A DNA stretch of 64,000 nucleotides from an uncultured Verrucomicrobiae bacterium (GCA_963754775.1 CAVWHM010000045.1:134494-198493), one strand, 5' to 3'; numbered from the stretch's first letter, positions 15,766 through 44,233 are shown. Translations and numbers: made by a program. The notes: generated from the letters alone by a model not told the origin.

Positions 15766-19163
<3,398 letters not shown>

Positions 19164-19317
19164 AGAGGCGGGATTTTGGGGAAACCGGCGTGGCGGGGCA
19201 ATGTTGGAATTCCGGGGACGCAAGGCCCCCAAACTTCTCCGGCATTGACATGGATGAAAAGTTGTCGTAATTATGGCGATTAGACATCTTTGATGATGGA
19301 TTGAGTGAGTTTGGACC

Positions 19318-20220
19318 ATGACCGTTTCGCGCGTTTCACGGATTCCGCTGTTTGCCACCGAAGCCGGAAGGCGGGGCTTTACCCTGATTGAACTGCTGGT
19401 GGTGATTGCCATCATCGCGGTGCTGGCGGCGCTTTTGCTCCCGGCGCTCTCGCGGGCGCGCATGCAGGCGCAAGGCATACAATGTCTGGACAACACCCGG
19501 CAACTTCTCCTGGCCTGGGAACTCTATGCCCATGACCACGACGACCAGTTGCCTTACAATCTCGGCATGACTGAGGGGGGACCACGAACGCCGCTCAACT
19601 GGGTCAACAACGTCATGACCTGGGATTTAAGTCCGGACAACACCAATCCGGCCACCATCACCGACGCCAGCCTCGGTCCTTACAGCAGCGCAACAACAAT
19701 TTACCGCTGCCCGTCCGACAATGTGTTGAGCACGATGCAAAGTGCCGCCGGTTGGGACGGGCGCATCCGCAGTTATTCGATGAACGCGATGGTCGGTGAC
19801 GCGGGCGATTTTTCCACCAACGGTTTCAATATCAACAATCCCGATTACACTCAGTTTTTCAAAATCACACAAATCCCCCAACCGGTCGAAATTTTTGTGT
19901 TTCTGGACGAACATCCGAATACCATTGATGATGGATATTATCTCAACAAATCCACCGAATACGCGAGCAGCAGCACCAGCAGCACCTATGGCGGCCCGGT
20001 TTACAACAATGCCGAATGGCTGGATTTGCCGGCCACCTATCACAATCAGGCAACGGCATTTTCGTTTGCCGATGGACATAGTGCGCTGCATCGTTGGCTG
20101 GTTCCCAGCACCATCTACCCGGTCCGGCCGGATGTCCCCTACATTCCTGTCGACATTCCCGCCAATCAGCGCGCGGATTTCAACTGGATACTCGAACACA
20201 TGAGTGTGGACCAGAATTGA
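19318..20220 (+). CDS. Prepilin-type N-terminal cleavage/methylation domain protein, HX9DG family
   Basis: [28 protein letters not shown], plus the C-terminal motif [12 protein letters not shown] (H-X9-DG). Confidence 0.85.
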
Positions 20221-20233
20221 TGGCCGGTCAGGC

Positions 20234-20989
20234 TTACAGATAACGCCTCAGGGCTTGTTCATCTCCGGTCGTTCCCAGCATGTAGAGTTTGTCGCCTTCT
20301 GTCCAGGTCACCAACTGGAGCCGGCTGACCTGAACGAATTGGCGCGACCCGGCCGGTGGCGCGTCCTTCACCCGGGAGCGGTCAATGACGAAAAGCCAGA
20401 GATCGCTTTGTTCCCCCGGCGGCAATGGTTTGCCGGTGCGGAAACAAACCATCGAAACCTTTGTCCCCCGCCAGTCTTCAATCGCGCAGCCAGCCACAGC
20501 GGCTTTTCCCAACGGTGCCGGCAGAACGAAATCCGCCGGCGCGCGGTTCTGGGCAAGGTAGGCGTGGACGGATGCCGGATTGTCTGTTGTCAAATCCATG
20601 CCGTAGCCGCGCAGCGCGATGCTCGCCATCCCGTTCCGGTAAGTGGTGAACGCCTCGTAATTCGGCCGGGGCGGCAACCAGAGCGGCGCCAGGGCAATCA
20701 GGGCGACGATGACCGCCGCCACCGCAAAAACCGCGTTCCGCCGCCAGTGGATGATTTTCTCCTGCGCCGCCTGTTCGGAAATGATTTGTTCCTTCAACCC
20801 GGCGGGCGCGGTGATTTGCCGGAATTTCGCGCGCAACGCTTCCTGCCGCGCGCAATGCTCCTTCAGCCACCCGGCCAGTTCCGGATCGCGCTGCGCCAGC
20901 GCCAGCGCTTCGGCGATTTGTGGATCGTCGGCGTCCGCCGTGCCAGGCCGGTAGAGCAATAAAGCGGTTTTGGCTTCGTCGCGGTTCAC
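20234..20989 (-). CDS. Membrane-spanning anti-sigma factor (putative)
   Basis: 251 aa. GTG start overlaps the sigma gene stop. Cytoplasmic N-terminus, one TM (AVFAVAAVIVALIALAPLW), periplasmic C-domain. Confidence 0.55.
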   Translation of the reverse strand: MNRDEAKTALLLYRPGTADADDPQIAEALALAQRDPELAGWLKEHCARQEALRAKFRQITAPAGLKEQIISEQAAQEKIIHWRRNAVFAVAAVIVALIALAPLWLPPRPNYEAFTTYRNGMASIALRGYGMDLTTDNPASVHAYLAQNRAPADFVLPAPLGKAAVAGCAIEDWRGTKVSMVCFRTGKPLPPGEQSDLWLFVIDRSRVKDAPPAGSRQFVQVSRLQLVTWTEGDKLYMLGTTGDEQALRRYL

Positions 20990-21510
20990 GATTCAGGGGG
21001 CTGAGGTTGCGCGCCGACGGTGTTGCCGGTCAACAGTTCGTGCAATCGTCCGAGGCCGCGGGCGAGCCGCGATTTGACGGTGCCGAGGGGCACGTCAAGG
21101 ATTTCGGCGATTTCATTGTAGGAACAATCCTGGAGGTAAAACAGCGCCACGGGCGCCTGATAAATTTTGTCCAACCTTGCCAGCGCCTCATGCACTTGTC
21201 CGGCATCGAGGCGGTTGGCCGAAACCGGGGACACGACGGGAAGCTCCGCCGCGGCGTGCTCCAATTCAACGTGCGGGAAGCGCGTTTGCCTTCGGCGCGC
21301 ACCGAGAAATTCGCGGTGAAGCGTGGTAAACAACCAGGTTTTCACTTTGGAAGTGTCCCGCAATTGGTGGCCTTTGGCCGCCCAAATGCAAAAGGTCTGT
21401 TGTGTGAGGTCACAGGCGTCAGCTTCGTTCCGCGCGAGACTGAAGGCAAACTGGTACAGCGGCTCGTAATAACAAGTCACCAGCGTCTCAAACTCCACGG
21501 CCTCAGCCAT
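20986..21510 (-). CDS. ECF-type RNA polymerase sigma-70 factor
   Basis: 174 aa. Region 2 (YEPLYQFAFSLARNEADACDLTQQTF) and region 4 HTH (SYNEIAEILDVPLGTVKSRLARG). Confidence 0.85.
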   Translation of the reverse strand: MAEAVEFETLVTCYYEPLYQFAFSLARNEADACDLTQQTFCIWAAKGHQLRDTSKVKTWLFTTLHREFLGARRRQTRFPHVELEHAAAELPVVSPVSANRLDAGQVHEALARLDKIYQAPVALFYLQDCSYNEIAEILDVPLGTVKSRLARGLGRLHELLTGNTVGAQPQPPES

Positions 21511-21756
21511 ATCGCCACATTGAAGTTAAGAGCCCGCAGAACGTCAATTGTTCCCTTGAAATTTGTGGGAACATACTCCGTTGTCATCCATCTCATCAAC
21601 AAATGTCCATCACGTTTTCGCCGAAAATCGTTTTTTGCCGACGCCATGATGGCCGCGGCCGAATCCACGATTCGCCGCCAGCGGACTCCGGGGGCCGGTC
21701 GAAACAGTCATTTATGGCCAGAAAACATGCGAGCACGGTAAATCTTCAGCAGCGCA

Positions 21757-22125
21757 TTGTCATTCGGTTTGTGGCTGCTGATTTTGTCCCGTGTGAAATC
21801 CGCCGGATCCCTTCCCCTGCCGGGCGGGAAAACGGTGAAAGCGCGGGTGTTCCTGGCAAGAAGCCTGGTAAAGGAACTCAATCCGGATGGCAATACAGTC
21901 GTTATCACCCGCAAAACCAATTCCCATTACCTGGCCGCCGCGACCATGCTGTTCGAGGTGAAGGATTTCAAAGACTTGGGCGGTTTGCCTCGGGGCGATG
22001 AAATTGCCTTTCGGCCCTGCGCGGCCAACACGGGAAGACGGAGGTATCCAATCACCGCAATCGGAGAAACCGGGGTTCAATCCGCCCGATTTCCGACGGG
22101 TTGCCCTTTCGCCGCGATTTTTTGA
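21757..22125 (+). CDS. Small CusF-like periplasmic beta-barrel protein lacking the usual His/Met ligands (tentative)
   Basis: VKELNPDGNTVVITRKTNSHYLAAATMLFEVKDFKDLGGLPRGDEIAF follows the pattern VKEL-PDG-T-VI-H--IP-YM-AMTM-FEVKD...GD-I-F, but with R for H and L/A for M. Weak signal peptide. Confidence 0.3.
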   Translation: MSFGLWLLILSRVKSAGSLPLPGGKTVKARVFLARSLVKELNPDGNTVVITRKTNSHYLAAATMLFEVKDFKDLGGLPRGDEIAFRPCAANTGRRRYPITAIGETGVQSARFPTGCPFAAIF

Positions 22126-22138
22126 AAGGACCAAGCGA

Positions 22139-24511
22139 TCACCGAAACCGGAAGGTCAGCACGCCGAAAACAGAGTTGGCGCGATAATTGTTCGCTCCGC
22201 CACTGCTCGGCTCGTCATAATAATCGAACCGGTATTGCAGTTTGGCTGAGATGTTCTTGCCAAAGCGGCGGGTCAACCCGACTTGGGCGCTGTGCTGTTG
22301 ATATTGAATGCCCAACGGCAAGCCGGCGGCAAAATTATTCTGGCCATAATTCGCTTCAGAGAAAGAGTAACCGGCGAACAAGTCGGTGGTCTGGCTGAGA
22401 ACATAGGCGCCATCAGCAAGAACCGTGTAAGTATCGCCACGGTAAGGCACGACGGCCGGTGAGCCGTCAGCCGCCGTCTCCAGCGTGGAGACCGCGTAGG
22501 AAAAAGTGGCGGAAAGATAAAGCCGCGGAGTGGGCGTCAGCGTCGTGTTGATGGAAAAAATATGGGAATGATCTTCGCCGGCCATCAGTTGGCCGCCCGG
22601 GGAAATGACGTTGCCGAAAGTGACATACGGACTGGTGTTCAGGCCATAATCGTCGGCGTGGTATTGATAAGACAGGGTGGTTTTGAAACGGGTGGACGGA
22701 TGTAAAACGAGTTTTGCCTCAACTTCGTCAGTGATGAGTTCGCGCGAACGGATGAACGTGGGATAGGCGGTCGGGCTGGGTTGAACCAACGGGTCGCTGT
22801 CATACTGGCTGTCGTCCTCGTAACGGCGATAATGGGCGCTGAAGGACGCACTGCGCCAGGGCGAGGTATCGAAACCGAACCGGAGATCGCTCGACTGGCT
22901 GGAAAAGGCCGTGTGCTGGAGGATAACCGCCTTGTTGAGAATGTCCTCCGCGGCAGAAAACTGATCGTATTGCCCGATGTTTTGCTGCTCAAACCGGCCT
23001 TCGGCAAACAGCGCGGTAAAGGGAATTCCCGAATAGCGCAAAGCCAGGTTTTCCTGAAGCGAAGTTGTGTCGTAGTCCGAACTCACATTGAACGGAATGA
23101 GCGTGAACGGTGGCGGCGGAGTTTCCTCTTCCACGATTCCGCTGCCAAAACCGCTTTGCCGGGTCCACTCCGCCTGCACCCCGGTGGAAATCACCAGGCC
23201 GTCGAACGGGCCGATGAGGCCATTGACGTTGCCCACGTGTGATTCCTTTTCCAGTGTGATTTGCGGAATGTTCACCTGTTGCAACAGCGTCGGTTCGGCC
23301 ATCGCAAAAGACGAGTCTGCATTCAGTTTGCTGTAAAGATAGCCGGCCGAACCAAAGAACCAATCGCTGAACTTTTTTTCCAGCCGGATGGTGTTGGCAC
23401 CCTGGAAATAAGTGGTGCCTTCGCTCACACTTTGCGGCATCGGACCGGAAGCGACATTGGTTTCGGCGGTGTTCAGCCTGTAAAACTCGCCGCGAAACCG
23501 TTCTTCAATCGAGACGCCCTGGATTTCATCGTCCAAATCGAATTTGATGATGTGGACGCCCTCGTTAATGCTCCTGCTGGCCGGGGCAATGTTGCGCGCG
23601 ACGGCAGGAGGAGTCCCCACCGCGCCCCATTCCGTGGTGGCTTCGTTTCCCAGCTTGTAATCATATTCGTAGCCCAACACCAGGCGCGGCCAATCCGGCA
23701 AAGTGAGTCCGAAATCAACCCAGGCCTTGCCGATGTCCAGATGCAAATCTTCGTCCAGGCTCGGTGCCGGCTGAACCAAAGCTGGATAATAACCGCCGGT
23801 ATCATCGAAATATTTCCGGTACTGCTCCCAGCCCGAATGAACGAATCCAACATCATTCCGATCCACTGACAGTCCGATTTTATAATCGTCCAGCAACGCA
23901 TGGCCGTTGAGCAGAAGCCTGGTATCGGGGCTGGTTTGTTCGAACAATTCAAATTGTTCCACCCCGCCGTTCAACCCTTCCTTCTGCCAGTATTGTTCGC
24001 GAAATTTCCGGCTGTTACCGCTGACCGCCGTTCCGCCGAGAACTGGCGAAAAGGAAAAATCAAAGTTGTTGGTCAGCGTGGCCTTGTCCCAAACCGCCCC
24101 CTGGTCAATCCAGGCGCGCAACAACGATACCTGCTCCAGCGTAAGCTGTTGGCCCTTTCCAATCGGCGGCATTTCCGTGTCTTCCACCAGATAGGAAACA
24201 TAATGAACAAGCGGACTTTGGGCGCTGTTGCCGGGCAGAATGTCCACGCCTTGTTCACCACCTTTAAGGGCGGCCTGCCGGTTGTCCAGGCGGAATCCGT
24301 TCTTTGGTTTCTCCGGGCCATGGCACCGGAGACAGCTGTTTTCCAGAATGGGCCGGATGTCGCGGGCGAAATCAATCTGTACCGCGGCGGCCGGTGGCAG
24401 TTTGGAAATATCCACTTCGGCGGCAGAAACGCATCGGCAGCCGGCGAACGACGTCAGCAGGCACAGACTGATGTGCCCGAGCGTTGCCGTGTTGTTCGGT
24501 TTCCCATTCAA
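22139..24511 (-). CDS. Outer-membrane beta-barrel-like protein with N-terminal Planctomycete-type cytochrome c (PSCyt1) domain
   Basis: A TTG start at 24511 overlaps the upstream TGA; the in-frame upstream part of the ORF lies inside the cytochrome gene. Signal peptide LGHISLCLLTSFAGCRCVSA. DIRPILENSCLRCHGPEKPKNGFRLD carries one CXXCH. About 640 aa of beta-strand-like sequence follows, ending FGVLTFRFR. Confidence 0.6.
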   Translation of the reverse strand: MNGKPNNTATLGHISLCLLTSFAGCRCVSAAEVDISKLPPAAAVQIDFARDIRPILENSCLRCHGPEKPKNGFRLDNRQAALKGGEQGVDILPGNSAQSPLVHYVSYLVEDTEMPPIGKGQQLTLEQVSLLRAWIDQGAVWDKATLTNNFDFSFSPVLGGTAVSGNSRKFREQYWQKEGLNGGVEQFELFEQTSPDTRLLLNGHALLDDYKIGLSVDRNDVGFVHSGWEQYRKYFDDTGGYYPALVQPAPSLDEDLHLDIGKAWVDFGLTLPDWPRLVLGYEYDYKLGNEATTEWGAVGTPPAVARNIAPASRSINEGVHIIKFDLDDEIQGVSIEERFRGEFYRLNTAETNVASGPMPQSVSEGTTYFQGANTIRLEKKFSDWFFGSAGYLYSKLNADSSFAMAEPTLLQQVNIPQITLEKESHVGNVNGLIGPFDGLVISTGVQAEWTRQSGFGSGIVEEETPPPPFTLIPFNVSSDYDTTSLQENLALRYSGIPFTALFAEGRFEQQNIGQYDQFSAAEDILNKAVILQHTAFSSQSSDLRFGFDTSPWRSASFSAHYRRYEDDSQYDSDPLVQPSPTAYPTFIRSRELITDEVEAKLVLHPSTRFKTTLSYQYHADDYGLNTSPYVTFGNVISPGGQLMAGEDHSHIFSINTTLTPTPRLYLSATFSYAVSTLETAADGSPAVVPYRGDTYTVLADGAYVLSQTTDLFAGYSFSEANYGQNNFAAGLPLGIQYQQHSAQVGLTRRFGKNISAKLQYRFDYYDEPSSGGANNYRANSVFGVLTFRFR

Positions 24512-25326
24512 TAGAGAAGAATGGGCTGAATGTTTGAGCCGTGAACCGCAGTATGACAGCCGGCGGTCCAGCAAGAACCGAAGGCCAGGCTGCTGGTATG
24601 ATCCCGGCCTCCGATGAAAATGCGACCGGAAGCGGCCGGCCCCGGCACCTGCGCATGGCAACGGAGACACAGGTTGGAATCCGGCTCGGTGAGCATCCTG
24701 GCGTTGATGGAACCGTGAGGGTTATGGCAGACCGTGCAGCCTTCGCGCAGGGCCGGGTGTTCAAAAATAAACGGCCGGGTCTGTTCCCGATGGCATTGGG
24801 CGCACGTTTCATTCAACCGCGCCATGGCCAGTCCGCCCGCCGGTTTCATGATGTCCAAACCATGAGGGTCGTGGCATTGGACACAGTTCATTTTTCCCTC
24901 AAGCACCGGATGATGCTGGGGAAAATGAAATTCAGCCTGCGTCTCCAAATGACATTGGAAGCAGGCCTGCGGGTCCTTGCCCGGATTGATGATGAATTTG
25001 TCCAGACCGCCCCGGCCGCCCCAGGCGATGTGTTTGCTGCCCGGACCGTGGCAGGATTCACAACCGTATTGACCGGCCATCCCGCCACTTTCCAAATGCA
25101 GCCGGGCGTGTGGACTGGCGGGAAAGGCCCGGGTGATGTTCTCGTGACAGTCCGCACAGGCTTTGTCCCCGACGAACATGGCGCCTTCGATTTGCAATGG
25201 CACAACCACCGCGCGTTCCGGCGTGGAACAGGAATTGACCAGAAAAAGGAACAACCCGGCGCCCGCAACCAACCCCAGTCCGGTCAGCCAGTGCAGTCGC
25301 TTTGCCTTTGACAGGTGCATATCCAT
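24508..25326 (-). CDS. Multihaem c-type cytochrome, probable lipoprotein (7 CXXCH + 1 CX4CH)
   Basis: CADCH, CESCH, CFQCH, CVQCH, CAQCH, CTVCH, CLRCH and CWTAGCH. Signal with LVNSC. Paired CH..HG motifs (CHDPHG, CHNPHGS, CHTAVHGSN). Confidence 0.85.
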   Translation of the reverse strand: MDMHLSKAKRLHWLTGLGLVAGAGLFLFLVNSCSTPERAVVVPLQIEGAMFVGDKACADCHENITRAFPASPHARLHLESGGMAGQYGCESCHGPGSKHIAWGGRGGLDKFIINPGKDPQACFQCHLETQAEFHFPQHHPVLEGKMNCVQCHDPHGLDIMKPAGGLAMARLNETCAQCHREQTRPFIFEHPALREGCTVCHNPHGSINARMLTEPDSNLCLRCHAQVPGPAASGRIFIGGRDHTSSLAFGSCWTAGCHTAVHGSNIQPILLY

Positions 25327-25386
25327 AAATCCCCAAGGCTGGCGTTGCTCAAAGCCCGGCCGCCATGTCCAGCTTTTGAAGGCCGA

Positions 25387-26359
25387 TCAAGGGTTTGGCA
25401 ATCGGCCCACGCGATAAAATTTTGTCACGGTTGAATCGAACGCACCTGAAAATGGCACCGGATTGCCGGAAGCAACATTCGTCGCCAGAGACACCCAATT
25501 CAGGAGATTGGATGAACTTTGAATAACGTAAGCGAGTCCGGCATTGGCGGTGTAGCTGAAGGAAAATTGGCCGCTGTTGAGCGTTACCCCGGAAAGATTG
25601 ACCGTTACCGGGCTGACCACCGACACATTCACCGCGGTGGAAGTTGCGGAGATTCCTCCCGCCGTCGCCACCGCCTTCAGAGCGTAAGCGCCGGCCGACA
25701 GATTGTTGGCGGTAAGACTGAAGGGAGCCGTCAGGACCGAGCCCAACGCAACGCCGTTGGTGAAAAATTGCACATTGGTCACCGTGCCGCTGCTCACCGT
25801 GGCGCTGGCCGCGATATTCACGTTCGCCGGAGCCGCAAAGACCGCTCCTGCAGCCGGATTGGTGATGCTGATTGTCGGCGGTGGTGGCGCTGGCGTGGAG
25901 CGTGTGTAAGAAAAGGATTTATCCCCGACGCCGCCGGCCCCACCCCAGGCAGTAAGCGTAAGAGAAAGGTAAATATCCTCGTTAGTTAAATGCACAACAA
26001 AGTTTGTGCCCACATAGTTCGGCGGACGATTTCCCGCCTCCAAGGGACACGTAGCCGTAGGTCAGCGTATTAAAGTTGGCGAGCAATCCGATGGCCCATT
26101 TCGTACCCTTGGGGCTGATGCCGGCGGTGGCGCCCATTTCCGCATTGGTATTATACAATCCTCCCCCGCTGCTGCTGCGGGTGAATGTCACACTTGATGT
26201 CAAGTGATCCACTTGATTGCCAGTCGGTGTTGAATGAGTGAAGGAAATGGTTGGCCCATTCCAAACCGTGGAAGCGTGTGCCATGGGCGCGGCGGCCACC
26301 AGCAAGGCCGCCACGATTCCCCGCAGATAAACAACTGAAAATGATTTGAGTATTTTCAT
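25387..26359 (-). CDS. Secreted protein of unknown function, paralogue A (one apparent frameshift near 26045)
   Basis: ORFs 25982-26407 and 25387-26043 join as ...TLTYGYVSL|EAGNRPPNYVGTNFVVHLTNEDIYLS when aligned to paralogue B. The shift is at a CCC run. Signal peptide MKILKSFSVVYLRGIVAALLVAAAPMAHA. Tail is YRVGRLPNP. Confidence 0.6.
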
Positions 26360-26436
26360 CGCAAGTGTGAGGCTCCAACTCAATTTAGGTTCCCGGATTT
26401 TCTCCATCGGTAAAAAACTGCGAAATCAAAGGCATT

Positions 26437-27132
26437 TCAAGGGTTTGGCAACCGGCCCACGCGATAATATTTTACCCCCGCCGGATCCAATAGATCGGAG
26501 AATGCCACCGACCCGGCAGCGGCATTGTTGGTCACCAGCGACACCCAATCCACCAGGTTGGATGAACTTTGGACGACATAAACGAATCCGGGATCGGTGG
26601 TGTAATTGAAGGAGAATTGGCCGCTGTCGAGCCTTGCTCCAGAAAGATTGACCGGCGTCGGCGTGGACCGTTGGTAGGCGAAGCCGCCGCTGCCCATGGG
26701 AACCCACAAAGTAAATTGAATGGAGATGTAAATGTCATCGGAGATGAGATGCACGACCGCCGATTGGCCGACCAGGGTGGTGGGCGATTGGCCATTGAGC
26801 CAGGCCAGCCAGTTGGTGTAGTGAAGCGAGGCGTAGTTATCGAGCGTGCCAAATGCCCATTCCGTATTCGTCGGGCTGAGAGCCGTGGCGTTGGTCTCCG
26901 AAAAGGCGTTAAAAAGACCCTTGGAAGCCGCGCGGGTCAACCAGACGTCCGGCGTAATCCGGTCCTGGTTGGTAGCCTGGGTTGGGTCGGGTGATGGCTG
27001 ATTGTAAGTCATCAGCGGGCCGGTCCAGACGGTGGCGGCGCGGCTCAAAGGCGCAGCAACCAGCGTCAAAGCAAACATGACACTCCGCAAAACATGAGCC
27101 AACGTCAGGTGACAAAAGCCTTCCCCATTCAT
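26437..27132 (-). CDS. Secreted protein of unknown function, paralogue B
   Basis: 231 aa. Signal peptide. Shared blocks with paralogue A are TVW-GP, VVHL--DDIY-S, GQFSF-YT and VQSSSNL--WVSL, with an identical tail YRVGRLPNP. Confidence 0.65.
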   Translation of the reverse strand: MNGEGFCHLTLAHVLRSVMFALTLVAAPLSRAATVWTGPLMTYNQPSPDPTQATNQDRITPDVWLTRAASKGLFNAFSETNATALSPTNTEWAFGTLDNYASLHYTNWLAWLNGQSPTTLVGQSAVVHLISDDIYISIQFTLWVPMGSGGFAYQRSTPTPVNLSGARLDSGQFSFNYTTDPGFVYVVQSSSNLVDWVSLVTNNAAAGSVAFSDLLDPAGVKYYRVGRLPNP

Positions 27133-27224
27133 CGAAGATGAGAGACCGGAAATGGAAATATGTTCCTGACGTTTTCAGGGTAATATTACACGTTTGCCGC
27201 CCACGGAATCTTCGCCGCCCCCGA

Positions 27225-27989
27225 CTACCGGTGGCCATGAACACACGAGGCGTTCCACGCCAATCGCAAACCTTCCAGGGTTAAATTGGGTTCGACCGCA
27301 ATGATTTCGGGCAAGCTTGCCGCGATCAATCGCGCATAACCGCCTGTCGCCACCACCGGCAAATGTTTCACTTTCAATTCGCGCTTCAACTCGGCGATCA
27401 ATTCGCGAACCAGCCCGCGATAACCGTGTACCGCGCCGATGAGCATCGCCTGCTCCGTGCTCCGGCCAACCGCAGTTTTGACTTCGCGGATTTTGATGCG
27501 TGGCAGCAACGCCGTTTTCTCGTGCAGATAATCCGTCATCGCCGCCAGCCCCGGCGCGATGATGCCCCCCGCGTAATTGCCCGCGCGATTGACCACATCA
27601 AACGTTACCGCCGTCCCGAAATCCACCACCACCACCGGCGCGCCAAAGCGTTTGCGCGCGGCCATGGCGTTTGCCAGGCGGTCTTCCCCGATCGTGTCCG
27701 GCTTCGGATAATCAATGCCCACGCCGCAAAGTGTTTTTTGCGTGAGTTCGAATGCGTGCAAATTCCAAAGCCGGCGGACAGTCTTGCGGACGTGCGGCGT
27801 CGCGCGCGGCACGACGCTGCACAGCGCCGCGCCTTCCAGGCTCGCACGGCCCGCAAATTTTTCCACCAGCTTTCCCGCCGCGCCTCCGAACCAAAGCGAC
27901 GTGGGCATGTTCGTGTGCTTCATCACGCGCCGGCCGTTGGCCAGGCCGAGGTGCGTGTTCGTGTTGCCGATGTCGAAAAGCAAAAGCAT
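27225..27989 (-). CDS. coaX: Type III pantothenate kinase
   Basis: 254 aa. LLFDIGNTNTHLG, VVVDFGTAVTFD, TGGYA. Confidence 0.9.
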   Translation of the reverse strand: MLLLFDIGNTNTHLGLANGRRVMKHTNMPTSLWFGGAAGKLVEKFAGRASLEGAALCSVVPRATPHVRKTVRRLWNLHAFELTQKTLCGVGIDYPKPDTIGEDRLANAMAARKRFGAPVVVVDFGTAVTFDVVNRAGNYAGGIIAPGLAAMTDYLHEKTALLPRIKIREVKTAVGRSTEQAMLIGAVHGYRGLVRELIAELKRELKVKHLPVVATGGYARLIAASLPEIIAVEPNLTLEGLRLAWNASCVHGHR

Positions 27990-29049
27990 TCAATCCGCAG
28001 ATTACGCGGATGACGCGGATAAAAAAGCAATTTTGAAATTTAATCCGTGACAATCCGCGCAATCCGCGGTTCACTTTTCCAAGCGTCACATCCCCGCCGG
28101 TGATGCGTTCCAAATGTCCATGTTCGGTTCGCAACAACAACGCGCCGTCGTCATCCAGCGACTCCGCCCGGCCGCTCACGCGCCGCCCGCCGATTTGGAT
28201 CGTCACCGCGCGGCCAATCGTCGTGCAATGCGCTTCCCATTCGTCGGCCACGTTTGCAAACAAGTTGCCGCAGACGCGCGCGTAATCACGATCCAGTTCG
28301 CGCAAAATGGCCGTTGCCAGCTCCGGCCGGGAAATGACTTTGCCGGCTTCGATTCTTAGCGATGTTGCCGTCTTGCGCAGTTCTGCCGGAAATTCGTTCG
28401 CGCCCAGGTTCACGTCCACGCCGATGCCGAGGATGACGTGCTTGACGCGATCCAACTCCGCGCTCATTTCCGTCAGGATACCCGCGACTTTCCGGCCGCG
28501 AATCAAAATGTCGTTCGGCCATTTGATTTCCGGGTCCAGGCCGGTTTCGGATTGAATCGCGCGCCGCAGAGCTGTCGCGGAAGTGACGGTGAGTCGCGTG
28601 GTTTCCTGCGGACGCAAATCCGGTCGCAGCAAAACGGAAAACCAAAGCCCTTTTCGCGCCGGCGACATCCACGCGCGCCCGAGCCGGCCCCGGCCCTTCG
28701 TTTGCGATTCCGCAAAAACAACGGCGCCCTCCTTCACCCCGTCGCGCGCCAGCCTTTCAATCACGTCGTTGGTCGAAGTCGTCTGCTCGAACACGTGGAT
28801 GTCGCGCCCGACGACTTTCGTTTTGCCGAGGCGCGCGAGCAAATCGTCCGCGTACAGCGCGTCGGGCGCGCTTACGAGGCGATAGCCGAAGTGCGGGCTG
28901 GCCTCGATGTCGTAGCCGAGCTGGCGCAATTCCTCGACATGTCCCCAGATCGCCGCGCGGGTGACGCCCAATTGCTCGGCGATTTCCGCGCCCGACACCC
29001 CGTCGGAATTCGCGCGCAACGCTGTAAGAATCTTGGCGTCGGTGGTCAT
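27712..29049 (-). CDS. birA: Bifunctional biotin-[acetyl-CoA-carboxylase] ligase/repressor BirA; ORF lacks the expected stop and runs about 118 codons into coaX
   Basis: HTH (GAEIAEQLGVTRAAIWGHVEELRQLGY), ligase core (QTKGRGRLGRAW, KWPNDI), C-domain ending GGDVTLGK near 28066. ATG 29049 is preferred because 29070 lies inside the repeat. The tail is repeat-encoded or out-of-frame coaX sequence. Confidence 0.8.
   Translation of the reverse strand: MTTDAKILTALRANSDGVSGAEIAEQLGVTRAAIWGHVEELRQLGYDIEASPHFGYRLVSAPDALYADDLLARLGKTKVVGRDIHVFEQTTSTNDVIERLARDGVKEGAVVFAESQTKGRGRLGRAWMSPARKGLWFSVLLRPDLRPQETTRLTVTSATALRRAIQSETGLDPEIKWPNDILIRGRKVAGILTEMSAELDRVKHVILGIGVDVNLGANEFPAELRKTATSLRIEAGKVISRPELATAILRELDRDYARVCGNLFANVADEWEAHCTTIGRAVTIQIGGRRVSGRAESLDDDGALLLRTEHGHLERITGGDVTLGKVNRGLRGLSRIKFQNCFFIRVIRVICGLNAFAFRHRQHEHAPRPGQRPARDEAHEHAHVALVRRRGGKAGGKICGPCEPGRRGAVQRRAARDAARPQDCPPALEFARIRTHAKNTLRRGH
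27992..28069. repeat. AATCCGC-rich repeat/hairpin element between coaX and birA
   Basis: aatccgcagattacgcggatgacgcggat ... aatccgtgacaatccgcgcaatccgcgg. Arms are partially complementary. Confidence 0.5.
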
Positions 29050-35060: not shown

Positions 35061-36479
35061 ATGCAACCGGGGAGCATACGGAGGACCAAAATCATTGCCA
35101 CGCTGGGGCCGGCCACCGATTCGGCGGAGATGATTGCGCGGCTCATGGAGGCGGGCGTCAACCTGTTTCGTCTCAACATGTCACACGCGCCGCACGACTG
35201 GGTGCGCCGCGTTTATCAGGACATCCGCGCCGCCGCCGCCACGCGCCGGCAATTTGCCGGCATCATGCTGGACACCCAAGGCCCGGCCATCCGCACCGGC
35301 GACATCAGTTCGCCGCTCGATTTGCAACCCGGCCAGAAATTCACCCTCACCGTCCGCGGCGAACGCGATCTGGAGGAACATTCCGTGGACGTGAATTACG
35401 CGAACTTCGTCAACGACATCAGCCTGGGCGACGTGGTGCTCATTGACAACGGCGCGATCCAGATGAAGGTGCTCGCCAAGGACGGCAACCGCGTCGAGTG
35501 CGAAGTGCTCACGGAAGGCACGCTCGGCAGCCGCCGCCACATCAACCTGCCCGGGGTCAGGGTCAGCCTGCCCGCCCTCACGGCCAAGGACATCAAGGAC
35601 GTTAAACTTGGTCTCGAACTCGGCGTGGATTTCATCGCGCTGTCGTTCGTCCGCGAAGCCCGCGACCTGCTGCAACTGCGGGAGCTTTTTGAAAAGGACA
35701 AACCGGCGCCGTTTGTCATCGCCAAAATCGAGGACCGGCAGGCGGTCCAAAATCTGGAATCCATCGTCCGCGAAACCGACGGCATCATGGTTGCCCGCGG
35801 CGATTTGGGCATTGAAATTCCATACGAGGAACTGCCCATCGTCCAACGCCGCATCGTCAAGACGTGTTTGCGCCACGGCAAGCCGGTCATCGTTGCCACG
35901 CACATGCTCGAAAGCATGATTGAATCGCCCATGCCCACGCGTGCCGAGGTCACCGACGTGGCCAACGCCGTTTACGAAGAAACCGACGCCATCATGCTCA
36001 GCGGCGAAACCACCGTCGGCAAATATCCGCTCAAGTGCATCGAAGTGTTTGACCGCATCGCCACGCGCATCGAACGCAGCGGCAGCGCGCAATTCCACGA
36101 CACGGCGGAATTGAGCACCCCGCGGCAGAAACTCGTCAAAAGCGCCGTCGTCATGGCCAATGAATTGAAAGCGGCGGCGATTCTGGTGATTACGCGCAGC
36201 GGCAACATGGCGCGCTACACCGCCTGGATGCGTCCGCATTATTCACCCATTTACGCGCTTTGTCCCAACCACAACGCGGCCGGCAGCCTGACGTTGAGCT
36301 GGGGCGTCACGCCTTTTGTGGTTCCCTTCGACCTCATCAATCCGGAGAACACCATCGAAACCTCGCTGAAAATCCTGGTGGAACAAGGCCGGCTGCGCAA
36401 AGGCACCACCGTCGTCATCATCGGCTCCATCCTGGTCGGTGAACAAATCGTGGACGCGGTGCAGATGCGCATCGTTTGA
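35061..36479 (+). CDS. pyk: Pyruvate kinase
   Basis: 472 aa. RRTKIIATLGPA, NMSHA, MVARGDLGIEIP, ATHMLESM. Confidence 0.95.
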   Translation: MQPGSIRRTKIIATLGPATDSAEMIARLMEAGVNLFRLNMSHAPHDWVRRVYQDIRAAAATRRQFAGIMLDTQGPAIRTGDISSPLDLQPGQKFTLTVRGERDLEEHSVDVNYANFVNDISLGDVVLIDNGAIQMKVLAKDGNRVECEVLTEGTLGSRRHINLPGVRVSLPALTAKDIKDVKLGLELGVDFIALSFVREARDLLQLRELFEKDKPAPFVIAKIEDRQAVQNLESIVRETDGIMVARGDLGIEIPYEELPIVQRRIVKTCLRHGKPVIVATHMLESMIESPMPTRAEVTDVANAVYEETDAIMLSGETTVGKYPLKCIEVFDRIATRIERSGSAQFHDTAELSTPRQKLVKSAVVMANELKAAAILVITRSGNMARYTAWMRPHYSPIYALCPNHNAAGSLTLSWGVTPFVVPFDLINPENTIETSLKILVEQGRLRKGTTVVIIGSILVGEQIVDAVQMRIV

Positions 36480-36501
36480 GCACGCGCCAGAAGCCGCGAT
36501 G

Positions 36502-37968
36502 CTATTTCAACACTTGCGCCGCCACCGTGGCGAGGTTCAGCACCACGCTCGGAAACAGGCCGATCCAGAACATGCCCGCGATGCAAATCCAGAGGGAAAC
36601 TTTGGCCGGGGCCGAAAGTGCAATCGGCGACAAGTCCGGCGCGTCCTTGCTCCAGTAAATCGCGCGGATGACGCCAAAATAGTAGTAAAGCGATATCACC
36701 ACGCCTGCCAGCGCCGTGAACGCGAGGCAATAATAACCCGGATCCGTTGCGCCCTGTTCAATCACGGCTTTCAGCAGCAGAAATTTCCCGAAAAATCCGG
36801 CCAGCGGCGGGATGCCCGCCAGCGACACCATCGCCAGCGACAGCGTTGCGGCCAGCAGCGGCGAGCGCTGGTTTAAACCCGCCAGCGCGGAAATGTCCTC
36901 GTTTTCCAAGTGCCGCATCACGAGGCAAATCACCGTGAACGCCCCCAGCACCGTGAACAGATATCCGGCCAGATAATACAGAAGCGCCGAGCCGCCAGCG
37001 GTAGAATTGTGAACGCCTCCGGCCAACGCCGCCACACCCAGCAGCAGGTAACCCGCGTGCGCAATGCTCGAATAGCCGAGCAATCGCTTGAGGTTGCGTT
37101 GCGGAATCGCGCACAGGTTGCCGTAGAGAATTGTGATGCCCGATATCACGATGAGCAAATTCGCCCAATGCGCCGTAATGCTTGGAACGGCGGTGAATAA
37201 AACGCGCAGCAGCAGGACAAATCCGGCGGCCTTGGAACCAACGGCGAGAAACGCGGTCGTCGGCGTCGGTGCGCCCTGATAAACGTCCGGCGCCCAGATT
37301 TGGAACGGAAACGCCGCGATTTTGAATCCGAGTCCAACCAGCACCAGCAGCACGCCCAGCAGAAAGATTTTGTTGCCGGCAAATTGGGACGCGATCTGGG
37401 CGAGTTCGTTGAAATTCAATTTGCCTGTTGTGCCCCATACCAACGCGATGCCGAAAACCAGGAACGCCGACGATAGTGCGCCGAGGATCAGATATTTTAC
37501 GCCCGCTTCCAGCGACACCAGCCGCCCGCGCTGAAAACTCGTGAGCACGTAGAATGTGATGGTGATCAGTTCGATTGAAACAAACAACATCGCGAAGTCA
37601 TTCGCCGAAGCCGCAAACAGCATTCCCGACAACGCAAAGATAATGAGCGAGTAGTATTCAGAAATGCCTGCGGCGATGCGATCGGAAAATTCCGCCGACA
37701 TGAACAGCACAAGAATGGCGGCGATGATAAAAAAGCGTTTGAAAAACACCGCCAGGGCGTCTTCCACGAACGACCCGCTGAACGCCGTGCCCGTCTGACT
37801 GCAAATGCCATAGCCGCTCAAGCTCGTCAGGAGCAGCAGCCCCAGCGCCGCGATCGCCGCGTAGCCGAGAAAGCGCCGGCGTTCGGGCGGCATGAACAAA
37901 TCCGCCAGCAGCAGCACCACACCGAGGGCGATCACCGAAATTTCCAGGCTTATCAACTCTGAGTTCAT
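36502..37968 (-). CDS. nuoN: NADH-quinone oxidoreductase subunit N
   Basis: Polytopic antiporter-like subunit. ATG at 37968 shares one base with the nuoM TGA (the listed ORF begins one codon earlier at a TTG). Confidence 0.9.
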   Translation of the reverse strand: MNSELISLEISVIALGVVLLLADLFMPPERRRFLGYAAIAALGLLLLTSLSGYGICSQTGTAFSGSFVEDALAVFFKRFFIIAAILVLFMSAEFSDRIAAGISEYYSLIIFALSGMLFAASANDFAMLFVSIELITITFYVLTSFQRGRLVSLEAGVKYLILGALSSAFLVFGIALVWGTTGKLNFNELAQIASQFAGNKIFLLGVLLVLVGLGFKIAAFPFQIWAPDVYQGAPTPTTAFLAVGSKAAGFVLLLRVLFTAVPSITAHWANLLIVISGITILYGNLCAIPQRNLKRLLGYSSIAHAGYLLLGVAALAGGVHNSTAGGSALLYYLAGYLFTVLGAFTVICLVMRHLENEDISALAGLNQRSPLLAATLSLAMVSLAGIPPLAGFFGKFLLLKAVIEQGATDPGYYCLAFTALAGVVISLYYYFGVIRAIYWSKDAPDLSPIALSAPAKVSLWICIAGMFWIGLFPSVVLNLATVAAQVLK

Positions 37969-39521
37969 CAATTTCGGAGTGCGGAGTTCGGAGTGCGGAG
38001 TTTGGAAAGGTTAGCCTGTGCAACCGTTTTGTCCGCGGTTTCGACTGGTGCGGCAAGGCTCACAATCTTTGCGGCGTCCGGCGTGATTTTGTCCGTGAGC
38101 AAACGCGGGAAACAGCCGAACACGAACAGGCTCGCCAGCAGCAGCGCGTAGGGCAGTTTGCGCCAGGCATGCGACGCGTCGGGAAGGGCCGCCCATTTTT
38201 CCGGCAGCGGGCCGTGCAAAACATCCCGCATCGCCCGCAACATGTAGAGTGCGCCGATCAGCAACGCGCCCCAAACCGCCAGCGCAGTCACCAGCGGGAA
38301 AACTGTCCACGCGCCGAAGAAGACCGTGACTTCGCCGACGAAATTGGCAAAGCCCGGCAACCCGCAACCCGCCAGCGCCGCCATCAACAGGGCCGTGCCG
38401 ATAAAAGGCAATTGGCGGCAAAGCCCGCCCAGCTTGCTCATTTCCAGCGTGCCGGTCTGTTGATAAATGTAGCCGCTCAACGCGAACGTCAGGGCCGCCA
38501 GGAAACCGTGCGCGATCATGATGACCACCGCACCAGTCACGCCGATGAGGTTCAGGCTGGCGATACCAAGGAAAATGAAACCCATGTGCGCAACGCTCGA
38601 ATTGCCGATGAGCAGGTTCAGGTCCTTCTGCCGCATCGCCACCCAGCCGACGTAAAGGATGTTGCCCAGGCAGAGCCACGCGAGAAAGGCCATCCAGTTG
38701 TGGGCGGCCTGCGGCATCAATGGCAGCGCAACGCGAATCAAACCGTACAGCCCGAACTTCTTCAACACGCCGGCATGCAGCATGGCGGTCGGCGACGGCG
38801 CGGCTCCGTAGCCCAACGGTGCCCACGAATGGAACGGCCAGAGCGAAACCAGAATGCCGAAGCCGAACAGCAACAGCGGGAAGATGAAATTCTGTGCGCT
38901 GGCCGCGAGCGGATTGGCCTTGGCATGTTCAATCAATTTCGGGATGTCGAACGTGTTCACGCCGGATTGCAGGTAAAGCGCGATGAGGCCAATGAGCGCG
39001 ATGAGCGCGCCAATGCTCAGGTAAAGCGTGATCTGGAACGTCGCGTAATTCTTCCGTTCGCCGCGGCCCCAGACGCCGATCATGATGAACGTCGGCACCA
39101 GCGCGAGTTCGTGCAGGAAATAAAAGAAAAACAGGTCGAGCGACGCGAATGCGCCGAGGATGCCGCCGCTCATCACCAGCAACAGGATGTAAAATTCCTT
39201 TTCGCGTTCCTTGATTTCCCACGAGCAGCACGCCGCCGCGAACGCCACAATCGCGCCCATCAATATCAGCCCGACATTCAGGCCATCCACGCCGACGTGA
39301 TAGCTGATGCCAAGTGATTCGACCCACGGAATTTGCTGTTCGAACTGGTAACCATTCACACCGGGAATGAACTGCACGAACATTTTCACCGCCAGCACCG
39401 CCGGGATGAGGGTCGCCAGGACCGCGATCGCGCGGATGACGACACGGTAATTGCGCGGCACGACAATCAGCGCCAGCGCCGCCAACAGCGGCCAGCCAAA
39501 AATGTAAGTCAGAATCGACAT
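37968..39521 (-). CDS. nuoM: NADH-quinone oxidoreductase subunit M
   Basis: ORF trimmed to the ATG at 39521 (MSILTYIFGWPLLAAL). Typical NuoM/ND4 TM pattern. Confidence 0.9.
   Translation of the reverse strand: MSILTYIFGWPLLAALALIVVPRNYRVVIRAIAVLATLIPAVLAVKMFVQFIPGVNGYQFEQQIPWVESLGISYHVGVDGLNVGLILMGAIVAFAAACCSWEIKEREKEFYILLLVMSGGILGAFASLDLFFFYFLHELALVPTFIMIGVWGRGERKNYATFQITLYLSIGALIALIGLIALYLQSGVNTFDIPKLIEHAKANPLAASAQNFIFPLLLFGFGILVSLWPFHSWAPLGYGAAPSPTAMLHAGVLKKFGLYGLIRVALPLMPQAAHNWMAFLAWLCLGNILYVGWVAMRQKDLNLLIGNSSVAHMGFIFLGIASLNLIGVTGAVVIMIAHGFLAALTFALSGYIYQQTGTLEMSKLGGLCRQLPFIGTALLMAALAGCGLPGFANFVGEVTVFFGAWTVFPLVTALAVWGALLIGALYMLRAMRDVLHGPLPEKWAALPDASHAWRKLPYALLLASLFVFGCFPRLLTDKITPDAAKIVSLAAPVETADKTVAQANLSKLRTPNSALRN
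37975..38003. repeat. CGGAGTK heptamer tandem repeat inside the nuoM 3' end
   Basis: cggagtg cggagtt cggagtg cggagtt t. Encodes the last residues (LRTPNSALRN*) of an extended NuoM tail. Confidence 0.6.
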
Positions 39522-39522
39522 T

Positions 39523-41517
39523 TTATTTCCCCAAAACCAGATACAGCACCACCGCCACGCCGAGCACGAACAGGAGGGCGTAGGTCTGGAGGTTGCCGGT
39601 TTGCACAAGGCGCAACGCGCGACCGGTGAAATCCGTGCCGCCACGAACCAGCCCGATGCAAAGACCTTCCACCAGCCAGCGGTCAATCACATCCATGACC
39701 GCCGCGATGAAATCGTGCGCACGGATGAAAGTGGCCTCGTAAATTTCGTCGAAATAAAACTTGTTCTTCATCGCGGTGGCCAAACCACCGAGCTTGGCGG
39801 GCAGCGGATCGGTTTCGGCATTGTGATAGAATTTGAACGCCATGAGAAACCAATTGCAACGCCGATAAACCCGACAAGGCAATCCGCGAATCCGTAAATG
39901 GCTCAAGATTTTTTGCAGAAGCGTCTTTGTTGGGAAAAGCACAGCGTAAGTTTTTGCTGGAATCGATTACGAGCGCCGAATCGATTTGCGCGAGATTCAT
40001 TCTGCAGCGGAAGCAGAATTATCGACTCTCCGGCGAAACGAACTGCGAAGTGGCCGACATCAAAAATATGATGTCTGTAATTCTTTCGCGCCAATGATAC
40101 CACCAACCAGCGCGAACACAGCCAAGACAACAGCGGCAGCGACATGACGGCGGGTGATTCGTGCGCGTGCTTGGCTTTTTCAGTCCGAGCTTCACCAAGG
40201 AAGGCGACAAAGAAAAGGCGGAACATGTAAAACGTCGTCAAATCGGCCACAAATACGCCGACGCGCGAAGAGCAGATAATTATTTTCATCCAGTGCCTGC
40301 GCGAGGATGCTGATTCTTTCGAGTAGAAACCACTCAACGGCGGCACGCCGCTCAACGCCAGCGTGCCGATGAGGAACGTCCAGAACGTAACGGGCATTTT
40401 TTCGCGCAGGCCGCCCATTTTCCAGATGTCCTGCTCCTCGTGCAGCGCGTGAATGACCGAGCCGGCGCCGAGGAACAGCAGCGCTTTGAAAAACGCGTGC
40501 GTCGTCAAATGGAACATCGCCGGCGTCGGGCCGGCCAGGCCGACGGCCATGACCATGTAACCGAGTTGCGACAGCGTCGAGTAGGCGAGGATGCGTTTGA
40601 TGTCGTTTTGCTGGACGGCGATCAATGCCGCGAGCAAGCGCGGTGAATCCGCCGATATACGCAATGACCTCCAGAGCGGTCGCATCGAGCAGGAAAATAA
40701 TCCGGCAAAGCATGTAAACACCGGCCGCCACCATCGTCGCCGCATGGATCAACGCGCTGACCGGCGTCGGGCCTTCCATCGCATCGGGCAACCAAACGTG
40801 CAGCGGAAATTGCGCGGACTTGCCCATCGCACCGCAGAAAATCAGCAGACCGGCAATGCTGGCGATGGCTCCAAGCGCAACGGGATTGGCGGTGAGGGTT
40901 TGTTGGAGCGTGCTGAAATTCAGCGAACCGAGCGTGGCCCACACAACCAGGATGCCCAGCAGGAAACCGAAGTCGCCGAGGCGGTTGGTGAAGAAGGCTT
41001 TTTTCGCCGCATCCGCCGCGCTGGGTTTTTCAAACCAGAACCCGATGAGCAGATAGCTGGAAACGCCGACCAGTTCCCAGAAGATGAACAGTTCGATGAA
41101 ATTGTTCGCCAGCACGATGCCGAGCATCGAGAACGTGAACAGGCTCATGAACGCAAAGAAGCGCGCCTTGCTCCGGTCGGCGTCCATGTAGCCGTAGGAA
41201 TAAATGTGAATCGCGCCGCCGACGCCGGTGACGATGAGCATCATCATCTCGCTCAACCGGTCGAGCTTCAGGCCGAAATCAACATTCAGGCCGCCGACGG
41301 AAAGCCAGTTGACGGCGGACTCACCGCTGACCCAGCCGTTGGCGGCGATGAACGCGACGGTGGAGACGAAGCCGATGACAATCGCGCCGATGGACAGGAG
41401 CGCGCTCACGTTGCGGTATTTCAACGTGAACAGCGTAATCACCGCCGCGGCGAGCAACGGCAGAAACAAAATGAGCCACGGTAAAATTTCGTATTTCATC
41501 AATTGGGACGGAAACAT
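39523..41517 (-). pseudogene. nuoL: NADH-quinone oxidoreductase subunit L, with multiple frame disruptions in its C-terminal half
   Basis: The N-terminal ~290 aa are intact (ORF 40192-41517 up to ...EVIAYIGGFTAL). The reading then hops: LAALIAVQQNDIKRILAYSTLSQLGYM...SGFYSKE (ORF 39903-40745), SILAQALDENNYLLF (first frame), GVFVADLTTFYMFRLFF...HAHESPAVMSLPLL (second), IYGFADCLVGFIGVAIGF (third), then LMAFKFY...KNKFYFDEIY...LQTYALLFVLG (ORF 39523-39942). Confidence 0.8.
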
Positions 41518-41607
41518 TCAACATTCAACATCGAACCTTCAACGCTCAATGCCCGTGGACTTCGCACATTGGATGTTGAGTGTTGAATGTTGAATGTTCG
41601 ATGTTCT
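41513..41607. repeat. Heptamer-periodic inverted repeat (AACATTC units facing GAATGTT units)
   Basis: aacattc aacattc aacatcg aaccttc aacgctc aatg ... cattgga tgttgag tgttgaa tgttgaa tgttcga tgttc. Lies between nuoK and nuoL. Same unit type as 29118-29157. Confidence 0.7.
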
Positions 41608-41616
41608 TTCATTTAA

Positions 41617-41919: not shown

Positions 41920-41930
41920 GTTTTCGGCGA

Positions 41931-44232: not shown

Positions 44233-44233
44233 T

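Follow-up and report, generated by a model that had tools for sequence, protein, structure and literature searches.

A verrucomicrobial gene pair encoding an MtrA-like octahaem cytochrome and a haem-domain-bearing beta-barrel protein: a candidate outer-membrane electron conduit

The 64,000-nucleotide (nt) stretch analysed here (GCA_963754775.1 CAVWHM010000045.1:134494-198493, from an uncultured Verrucomicrobiae bacterium; referred to as the window) carries two overlapping genes on its minus strand. The upstream gene encodes a 272-amino-acid (aa) cytochrome with eight c-type haem motifs, and the downstream gene a 790-aa protein in which a signal peptide and a monohaem cytochrome domain precede a predicted beta-barrel. 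A preliminary description, made from the window sequence, had put the pair forward as a possible route for electrons across the outer membrane. Here we describe the two proteins, their relatives and their genomic neighbourhood, and weigh this proposal against other explanations.

RESULTS

The two genes share a four-base overlap

The stop codon of the cytochrome gene (TGA, 24510-24508) and the start codon of the barrel gene (TTG, 24511-24509) share bases. At the junction (CTA-TTG-AAT), the cytochrome frame reads CTC TAT TGA and the next frame reads CTA TTG AAT GGG. The preliminary description had placed the barrel start at this TTG, and independent gene calls and homologue lengths agree with it. 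On five independent metagenome contigs encoding a 97%-identical barrel protein, gene calling gave identical 272-aa and 790-aa products with the four-base overlap kept, and barrel homologues of 790 to 792 aa have an N-terminal length equal to that of the window protein. The sole earlier in-frame start lies deep within the cytochrome gene, and with a later alternative start the signal peptide would be lost. The overlap is consistent with co-transcription and translational coupling of the two genes. Among all open reading frames (ORFs) of the window, only the cytochrome has more than one CXXCH motif; besides the barrel gene, two further ORFs have a single CXXCH, one encoding a zinc-ribbon protein and the other having no family match.

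The cytochrome is related to MtrA and DmsE

The features first read from the 272-aa product are all present in the sequence: a signal peptide terminating in LVNSC (Cys33), seven CXXCH motifs at residues 57, 89, 122, 148, 175, 197, and 220, and a terminal CWTAGCH (CX4CH) at residue 252. In Pfam, the protein matched Paired_CXXCH_1 (E = 2e-21) and MtrC/MtrF-type haem domains. Its top NCBIfam match was the GSU2203 decahaem family NF041028 (E = 1e-48), with a score of 166.2 bits that lies below the cut-off of 325; against the DmsE/MtrA decahaem family TIGR03508 (E = 5e-46), it scored 157.2 bits, below the cut-off of 192.2. Among PDB sequences, the top match was chain A of entry 6R2Q (E = 5e-27), a chain of 333 residues that we take to be MtrA, the entry being titled Structure of the Mtr complex (Shewanella baltica) in the fold library. 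The name given to this chain in the PDB sequence file, "Cystathionine beta-synthase," is a labelling error of no biological meaning. The likeness to MtrAB that had been noted from gene layout thus extends, on these profile and sequence matches, to a clear homology of the cytochrome to MtrA/DmsE.

In the alignment to 6R2Q, CWTAGCH pairs with the last CXXCH of MtrA, haems 3 to 8 of the query pair with the last six of MtrA, and haems 1 to 4 pair weakly with its first four. This haem-by-haem alignment suggests that the cytochrome resembles MtrA minus one di-haem unit. Across 41 homologues (68 to 91% identity), the eight haem motifs are invariant, as are Cys33 and eight additional His residues (73, 99, 139, 155, 190, 204, 243, and 262), which are enough for a predicted bis-His ligation at each haem. 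The pattern of seven CXXCH motifs plus C-x4-CH is retained in 69 of 70 homologous loci, and the cysteine of an x-x-(S/A)-C signal-peptide end is found in all 70 complete N-termini among the related genomic loci. Because this lipobox Cys is conserved, the cytochrome is probably a lipoprotein with its anchor at Cys33; the Asn at position -2 is not the textbook lipobox residue.

The 790-aa protein joins a monohaem domain to a predicted 26-strand barrel

PSCyt1 (PF07635) covers residues 60 to 116 of the 790-aa protein (E = 4e-15), scoring 56.6 bits against a gathering cut-off of 22, and the single CXXCH of the protein, CLRCH, occupies residues 60 to 64 (24320-24334). None of the residues C60, C63, H64, M114, P115, and P116 varies among 40 homologues, and an MPP motif lies 49 to 52 residues past the haem His in 66 of 68 fused homologues. 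Because the CXXCH His, Met114, and the spacing of the MPP motif are conserved, Met114 (in an EMPP motif) is probably the sixth ligand of a His/Met class-I-type haem.

The AlphaFold2 model of the protein has a predicted local distance difference test score (pLDDT) of 75.6 overall and mostly 85 to 95 in the strands. From residue 150 to residue 787, it consists of 26 long strands, counted in the DSSP listing of the model rather than from its coordinates, with long loops alternating with short turns; the C-terminus is FGVLTFRFR. Given this alternation, the model places both barrel termini on one side, predicted to be the periplasmic one. In a Foldseek search against the PDB, the top match was MtrB (6r2q_B; E = 1.8e-10). 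The preliminary description had listed the single CXXCH, the PSCyt1 domain, and the FGVLTFRFR end, and had read the C-terminal 640 aa as a barrel and not a soluble fold; the profile score, the modelled strands, and the fold match all support that account.

Remote sequence links between the barrel and the MtrB/PioB group

Relatives of the barrel gave matches to known porin profiles. Of 49 barrel-family members, 7 matched the Pfam family MtrB_PioB (PF11854; best E = 7.5e-6), 14 matched the NCBIfam family NF041027 (the GSU2204 family; best E = 4.9e-10), and 1 matched TIGR03509. An additional member, P0482, scored 28.6 against PF11854, above the gathering score of 23. The window barrel itself scored 18.8 bits against NF041027, where the cut-off is 350. 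Together, these profile matches point to a remote relationship between the barrel and the MtrB/PioB/GSU2204 group.

One detail of the earlier account did not hold. Residues 165 to 183 of the 790-aa protein read GNSRKFREQYWQKEGLNGG, and a resemblance to an S-x-KF-x-EY-x-GL motif associated with MtrB/PioB porins had been claimed; no profile search supports this. The stretch GNSRKFREQYW is conserved inside the barrel family, and no Pfam, NCBIfam, or PDB-sequence search aligned it to MtrB/PioB. As far as these searches go, a motif of this type is a signature of the window barrel's own family and not a demonstrated MtrB motif.

Cytochrome and barrel genes are paired throughout the family

An exhaustive barrel-only search returned 820 representative clusters, in which two architectures occur: proteins of about 770 to 850 aa with an N-terminal CXXCH, and proteins of about 657 to 714 aa with no haem motif, in which the barrel directly follows the signal peptide. 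One representative, P0280 (914 aa), has CLKCH at residues 41 and 178, which suggests two tandem haem domains before the barrel.

A genome scan that used a barrel-only alignment of the closer sequences returned 77 loci, all of which encode the fused haem domain. Verrucomicrobia, Limisphaerales, or Pedosphaera appear in about 60 of the 77 record titles, and the remainder have another taxon label or none. Among the latter, several name Bifidobacteriaceae, Sulfotelmatobacter, Acidiferrales, Binatia, Limnocylindrales, or Akkermansia muciniphila (L001, L003, L005, L019, L023, L028 to L031, L034, L036, L044, L045, and L050). Since the gene order of these loci matches that of the Verrucomicrobia loci, the odd titles are probably labelling artefacts of the pipelines by which metagenome-assembled genomes (MAGs) are binned.

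In all 74 loci whose contig reaches far enough, an octahaem homologue lies directly upstream of the barrel gene on the same strand. The gap between the two genes ranges from an overlap of a few bases to a few hundred bases, and no further ORF with at least three CXXCH motifs lies within 10 kb in any locus of the scan. The pairing extends to unfused barrels. Those of Desulfatiglans (L078) and of another verrucomicrobial MAG (L080) are each preceded by an octahaem cytochrome with seven CXXCH motifs plus C(W/F/Y)xAGCH, at 52 to 57% identity to the window cytochrome. Because unfused barrels pair with an octahaem of the same pattern, this comparison indicates that the cytochrome-barrel pair predates the haem-domain fusion, which appears to be confined to Verrucomicrobia among the genomes sampled. 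In L080 (2856-10990), the unfused module is tandemly duplicated, each copy consisting of an octahaem gene, a gene for a 708- to 739-aa barrel, and an FGE-sulfatase-family gene.

Neighbouring genes and predicted regulation by an ECF sigma factor

The features of the locus are listed in Table 1. Two gene sets recur next to the pair, on either side of it: a gene for a secreted Big_7-type protein, and a triplet of genes for an extracytoplasmic function (ECF) sigma factor, a putative anti-sigma factor, and a DUF1559 protein.

TABLE 1 Features of the candidate conduit locus in the window
Feature	Position	Strand	Basis
Octahaem c-type cytochrome gene (predicted), 272 aa	24508..25326	minus	ORF call, haem motifs, profile matches, conservation
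790-aa fusion protein gene: signal peptide, PSCyt1 monohaem domain, 26-strand barrel (predicted)	22139..24511	minus	ORF, PSCyt1, AlphaFold2, Foldseek
TTGA overlap of cytochrome stop and barrel start	24508..24511	minus	Sequence read-out
Helical c-type cytochrome domain, residues 48-136	24104..24370	minus	AlphaFold2 helices, conserved ligands
Beta-barrel, residues 150-787, C-terminal LTFRFR	22151..24064	minus	AlphaFold2/DSSP, Foldseek, 820 relatives
Big_7 (immunoglobulin [Ig]-like) secreted protein gene, co-directional, upstream of cytochrome	25387..26359	minus	Big_7 match; relatives
231-aa secreted paralogue of the Big_7 neighbour	26437..27132	minus	N- and C-terminal domains in common, no Big_7 domain
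ECF sigma factor gene (Sigma70_r2 + r4_2)	20986..21510	minus	Pfam
Putative anti-sigma factor gene, single transmembrane segment, overlaps sigma stop	20234..20989	minus	Position
Prepilin-type DUF1559 gene, divergent	19318-20220		Recurrent triplet member
Small ORF, 118 aa, convergent with barrel gene	21769..22125	plus	Weak CusF_Ec match; called in relatives
ECF-type motif GGGAACC...N...CCTCACA, just 5' of Big_7 ATG	26366..26393	minus	Motif scan
ECF-type motif 5' of 231-aa paralogue	27139-27166	minus	Motif scan
ECF-type motif, 17 nt before sigma ATG	21527-21554	minus	Motif scan
ECF-type motif, divergent, on strand of 118-aa ORF	21568-21595	plus	Motif scan

The recurrent secreted neighbour, encoded immediately next to the pair in most loci, combines a Big_7 Ig domain and a C-terminal domain common to these proteins with a head that varies. 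A plastocyanin/azurin copper domain forms this head in 16 of 48 cases (for example, L026:6178-7101; such heads are also seen in L064, L030, L050, L052, L055, L041, L022, L068, and others), and in the window's Big_7-type copies the head is of another kind that has no annotation. An additional T near 26053, which is either a true frameshift or an assembly error, divides the Big_7 gene of the window into two ORFs at 25387-26407; the gene is intact (323 to 347 aa) in relatives 97% identical in the barrel protein. Compared with those relatives, the N-terminal third of the window protein is 68% identical and the remainder 95%. The spacer between the Big_7 and cytochrome genes is 60 nt long in the window and 60 to 100 nt across the window and L002 to L004. 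In several relatives, an inverted repeat in this spacer leads into a T-rich run (in L004, GCCGTCA...TGACGGC TTTGGGATTTT); this element, which is weaker in the window, might be an attenuator or an RNA-stabilising hairpin.

The sigma and anti-sigma genes adjoin the pair in about 36 loci. The candidate anti-sigma factor has no Pfam match, FecR included, and its role is deduced from where its gene lies and from the fact that this gene always accompanies the sigma gene. The 118-aa ORF matched CusF_Ec weakly (E = 4e-4, below the cut-off). It was found in six other loci, and in L026, L030, L052, and L064 it lies between the cupredoxin and cytochrome genes.

In 78 loci, there are 130 copies of a two-box motif, GGAAC-N17-19-TC(T/A)NA, compared with 27.8 in shuffled sequences (maximum, 36). 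The motif lies shortly 5' of the sigma gene in 24 loci, of a neighbour of the Big_7, 231-aa, or cupredoxin type in 27 cases, and of the cytochrome gene in 10 loci in which the cytochrome gene is first in line. The whole window has five copies (1.7 expected), four of them at the locus of the pair. The copy just upstream of the Big_7 gene is likely, from its placement, to be the promoter of a Big_7/cytochrome/barrel operon, and the positions of the motif suggest that the sigma factor is autoregulated and that its regulon takes in the candidate conduit operon. The exact 9-mer GGGAACAAA is not more frequent in the window than expected by chance, and scans of 19000-28200 for sigma-70 promoters and intrinsic terminators gave counts equal to those in shuffled sequences.

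Elsewhere in the window, a respiratory complex I (nuo) cluster lies at about 36500-51000 on the minus strand, with three Proton_antipo_M subunits and NuoG-, NuoF-, and NuoD-like genes, and a pyruvate kinase gene lies at 35061-36479 on the plus strand.

DISCUSSION

Our results favour the view, to which we assign a probability of roughly 70%, that the pair encodes a two-component outer-membrane porin-cytochrome conduit that is a divergent branch of the MtrAB/PioAB/MtoAB type. The outcomes that the preliminary description had named as refuting a conduit (a soluble C-terminal fold, homologues never adjacent to multihaem genes, a wrong TTG start) were each checked, and none was observed. The sequence and model data show domain content, homology, fold, synteny, and the promoter motif; from these, the assembly of a complex, the loading of haem, the membrane location, and electron transfer with its direction are inferred. 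In the 6R2Q structure, MtrA is established to be inserted in MtrB. By analogy, the octahaem, probably lipid-anchored and with predicted bis-His ligation at every haem, would enter the 26-strand barrel at its periplasmic end and be threaded into the lumen, forming a haem wire across the outer membrane. With only about 14 residues between it and the first strand, the PSCyt1 domain would sit at the periplasmic mouth, where its His/Met haem, tethered by the fusion, may pass electrons between soluble carriers of the periplasm and haem 1 of the wire, in a role like that of MtoD but fused to the porin. The operon and its secreted Ig-domain neighbour would be transcribed from ECF-type promoters under the adjacent sigma/anti-sigma pair, and the conduit would then be switched on by an extracytoplasmic cue.

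Several observations weigh against this interpretation. The TIGR03509 and PF11854 profiles did not match the window 790-aa protein at E values up to 1, and a profile built from 49 barrel-family members, searched against PDB sequences, found only chance protocadherin matches and not MtrB. The template modelling (TM) scores of the barrel to MtrB in Foldseek are low (0.34/0.40), and 22-strand TonB-dependent transporters and LptD follow closely behind MtrB in that list. The AlphaFold2 model of the cytochrome, made from the 41-sequence alignment, is too poor for use (pLDDT, 47; predicted TM score, 0.32). Near the window pair, there is neither a gene for an extracellular cytochrome nor one for an inner-membrane quinol dehydrogenase. 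A His/Met haem usually has a higher potential than a bis-His haem, which fits inward electron flow better than outward flow. Finally, Limisphaera, discussed below, has several other multihaem loci that could explain its iron reduction (PMC13608581).

Within the conduit interpretation, outward flow, in the form of respiration of Fe(III) minerals or humic substances, is somewhat favoured over inward flow, because the sole cultured carrier of the system is known for Fe(III) reduction and not for Fe(II) oxidation, and because isolate names in many of the record titles point to peat, soil, and sediment as the main sources of the related MAGs; similar clusters have also been tied to anoxic humic water (PMC5615132). 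The opposite case, a physically equal conduit that would take electrons from Fe(II), reduced humics, or minerals through the octahaem and the His/Met haem to periplasmic cytochromes and a terminal oxidase, would resemble MtoAB-MtoD, PioAB, or Cyc2 in its working. It draws support from the lack of an extracellular cytochrome, since a two-gene layout with no MtrC-like protein is also that of PioAB and MtoAB (PMC6344600), from the conserved Met ligand, which predicts a class-I-type haem at the periplasmic end, and from the neighbours, in that the plastocyanin/azurin domains and the CusF-like gene of a few loci recall the use of cupredoxins by iron oxidisers. The presence of complex I in the window would fit such a respiratory lifestyle. 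We consider a specifically inward-directed conduit rather unlikely.

The genes beside the pair lend themselves to two further explanations. Surface-signalling uptake systems usually have an ECF sigma/anti-sigma pair encoded beside an outer-membrane barrel, the fold matches that rank next after MtrB are TonB-dependent transporters, and the cupredoxin and CusF-like neighbours hint at metals. The barrel might thus be a solute or metal channel with no wire across the membrane, and the lipid anchor could keep the octahaem under the membrane instead of inside the barrel; the cytochromes would then form an outer-membrane-anchored periplasmic redox module that acts on incoming Fe(III) chelates or copper, for uptake or detoxification under FecI/FecR-like ECF control. 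The model, however, lacks a plug domain and a TonB box, as well as a signalling domain at the N-terminus, and the anti-sigma factor has no FecR match. The cytochrome, moreover, is specifically MtrA-like, and insertion would predict the one-to-one pairing with a 26-strand barrel that it strictly keeps in two phyla. We therefore rejected a TonB-dependent transporter as the principal reading of the barrel, given the model and the invariant MtrA-like partner, and consider a channel with an attached redox module improbable. Still harder to sustain is the idea that the barrel chiefly exports or displays the neighbouring Big_7 protein, with the cytochromes as accessories. The Big_7 gene does have an ECF-type promoter motif in common with the pair and usually adjoins it, but its head varies, it is absent from the Limisphaera and Desulfatiglans loci, and it is frameshifted in the window, whereas the cytochrome-barrel pairing is invariant. 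We regard this last explanation as highly improbable.

Returning to the transmembrane conduit, a more specific and rather doubtful extension of it is a new sub-type, suggested by the fused His/Met haem and the cupredoxin-bearing neighbours, in which the wire is covalently docked to its periplasmic relay, a blue-copper Ig-domain protein exchanges electrons with it in part of the family, and a dedicated ECF sigma factor that senses the extracellular redox or metal state switches the whole module. If this were true, a secreted blue-copper Ig-domain protein would replace the MtrC-type surface cytochrome in part of the family.

Limisphaerales- and Pedosphaera-type Verrucomicrobia are abundant in peat, soils, and humic lakes, where anoxic respiration bears on carbon turnover and methane release. 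For this phylum, the two-gene candidate conduit offers a concrete marker of Fe(III)/humic reduction, or of electron uptake, together with a mechanism that can be tested, and it can be traced to a Limisphaera strain that is in culture and respires iron. Handles on the connection between wire and periplasm and on regulation are provided by the tethered monohaem domain and the ECF-type promoters.

Comparison with known systems

In the window, as in MtrAB, PioAB, and MtoAB, a gene for a large barrel comes directly after one for a multihaem cytochrome. The likeness to MtrAB goes further, with a cytochrome homologous to MtrA and a barrel modelled with 26 strands, as in MtrB, its top fold match; the absence of an attached extracellular cytochrome gene from the window pair is shared with PioAB and MtoAB. 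MtrA differs in having ten haems, whereas the window cytochrome has eight sites, the last of them CX4CH. MtrA is also soluble, and the window cytochrome has a conserved lipobox Cys. MtrB has an N-terminal CXXC motif that is not a haem site; the window barrel has an extra haem domain and no direct match to the MtrB profiles. Unlike Mtr, the window system is predicted to be under ECF sigma control.

The preliminary description had further proposed that the locus combines the MtrAB and Cyc2 layouts. In terms of architecture this stands, in that one N-terminal c-type haem site is fused to an outer-membrane barrel in both Cyc2 and the window protein, and the likeness ends there. Cyc2 is a small barrel, a protein of roughly 400 to 570 aa that works without a multihaem partner, whereas the window protein has 790 aa, 26 modelled strands, a separate PSCyt1 domain of about 90 residues, and a multihaem partner that is always present. 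No Cyc2 match came from the family libraries searched, which are not known to include a Cyc2 model, or from PDB sequences. A likely functional analogue of the fused PSCyt1 domain is MtoD of Sideroxydans, encoded with mtoAB, another class-I-type monohaem cytochrome tied to an MtrAB-like pair. MtoD is a free, soluble, bis-His protein thought to relay electrons for MtoAB; the window domain differs in being tethered covalently to its barrel and in its predicted His/Met ligation.

The preliminary description also took the combination to be undescribed, which is not the case. In Verrucomicrobia from Trout Bog, He et al. (2017, mSphere, PMC5615132) reported novel genes for porins of at least 20 strands beside genes for periplasmic cytochromes, which have eight conserved haem sites, and suggested that electrons pass to humic substances in anoxic humic water. 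They called the system not homologous to those of Shewanella or Geobacter, treated PSCyt domains separately, and made no mention of haem on the porin (PMC5615132). The window locus, verrucomicrobial and with an eight-haem cytochrome adjacent to a porin of at least 20 strands, agrees with this cluster description, and the clusters and the window pair, likened by description, very probably belong to one family. Some of the reported clusters include an extracellular cytochrome, which the window locus lacks, and neither Opitutus terrae, whose strain PB90-1 has one of the published clusters, nor any other genome of that study appears by name among the unfused verrucomicrobial clusters.

A second precedent comes from Limisphaera. 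Two Limisphaera species grow by respiring ferrihydrite and ferric citrate, stated as the first report of dissimilatory iron reduction for this phylum, and the single N-terminal haem motif of one porin was likened to that of MtrB (PMC13608581, 2026). By cluster look-up, we found that Limisphaera sp. 4302-co, one of these iron-respiring strains, encodes a fused PSCyt1-barrel protein of 828 aa (WP_423431657.1; MGA4644803) that aligns to residues 37 to 789 of the window barrel protein with 32% identity (E = 3e-125). Immediately upstream is a gene for a 286-aa octahaem with seven CXXCH motifs plus CWSAGCH and about 60% identity to that of the window. The strain differs in being a thermophile, and its locus has neither a Big_7 neighbour nor an adjacent ECF pair.

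The third precedent, GSU2203 (OmcK)/GSU2204 of Geobacter (NF041028/NF041027), likewise combines an MtrA-like cytochrome with a CXXCH-bearing barrel of the MtrB/PioB type, in an architecture that is analogous only. NF041027 is given in a 2026 review as a CXXCH-containing MtrB/PioB-family outer-membrane barrel, and both genes were up-regulated with hematite and magnetite (PMC4070692). GSU2203 is a decahaem cytochrome, GSU2204 is a selenoprotein in some species, and the window proteins score far below the cut-offs of these families.

The verrucomicrobial gene pair as a hypothesis, a haem-bearing porin, and an analogous Geobacter pair are thus already known. What is added here is the homology of the cytochrome to MtrA, the remote kinship of the barrel to MtrB/PioB/GSU2204, the 26-strand model, the strict synteny, and the two architectures with their distribution, together with the conservation of the lipobox, CX4CH, and Met ligand, the link to an iron reducer in culture, and a predicted ECF-type regulon. 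The analysis as a whole indicates that the system found in Verrucomicrobia, divergent as it is, belongs as a branch to the Mtr/Pio/Mto lineage and was not invented independently.

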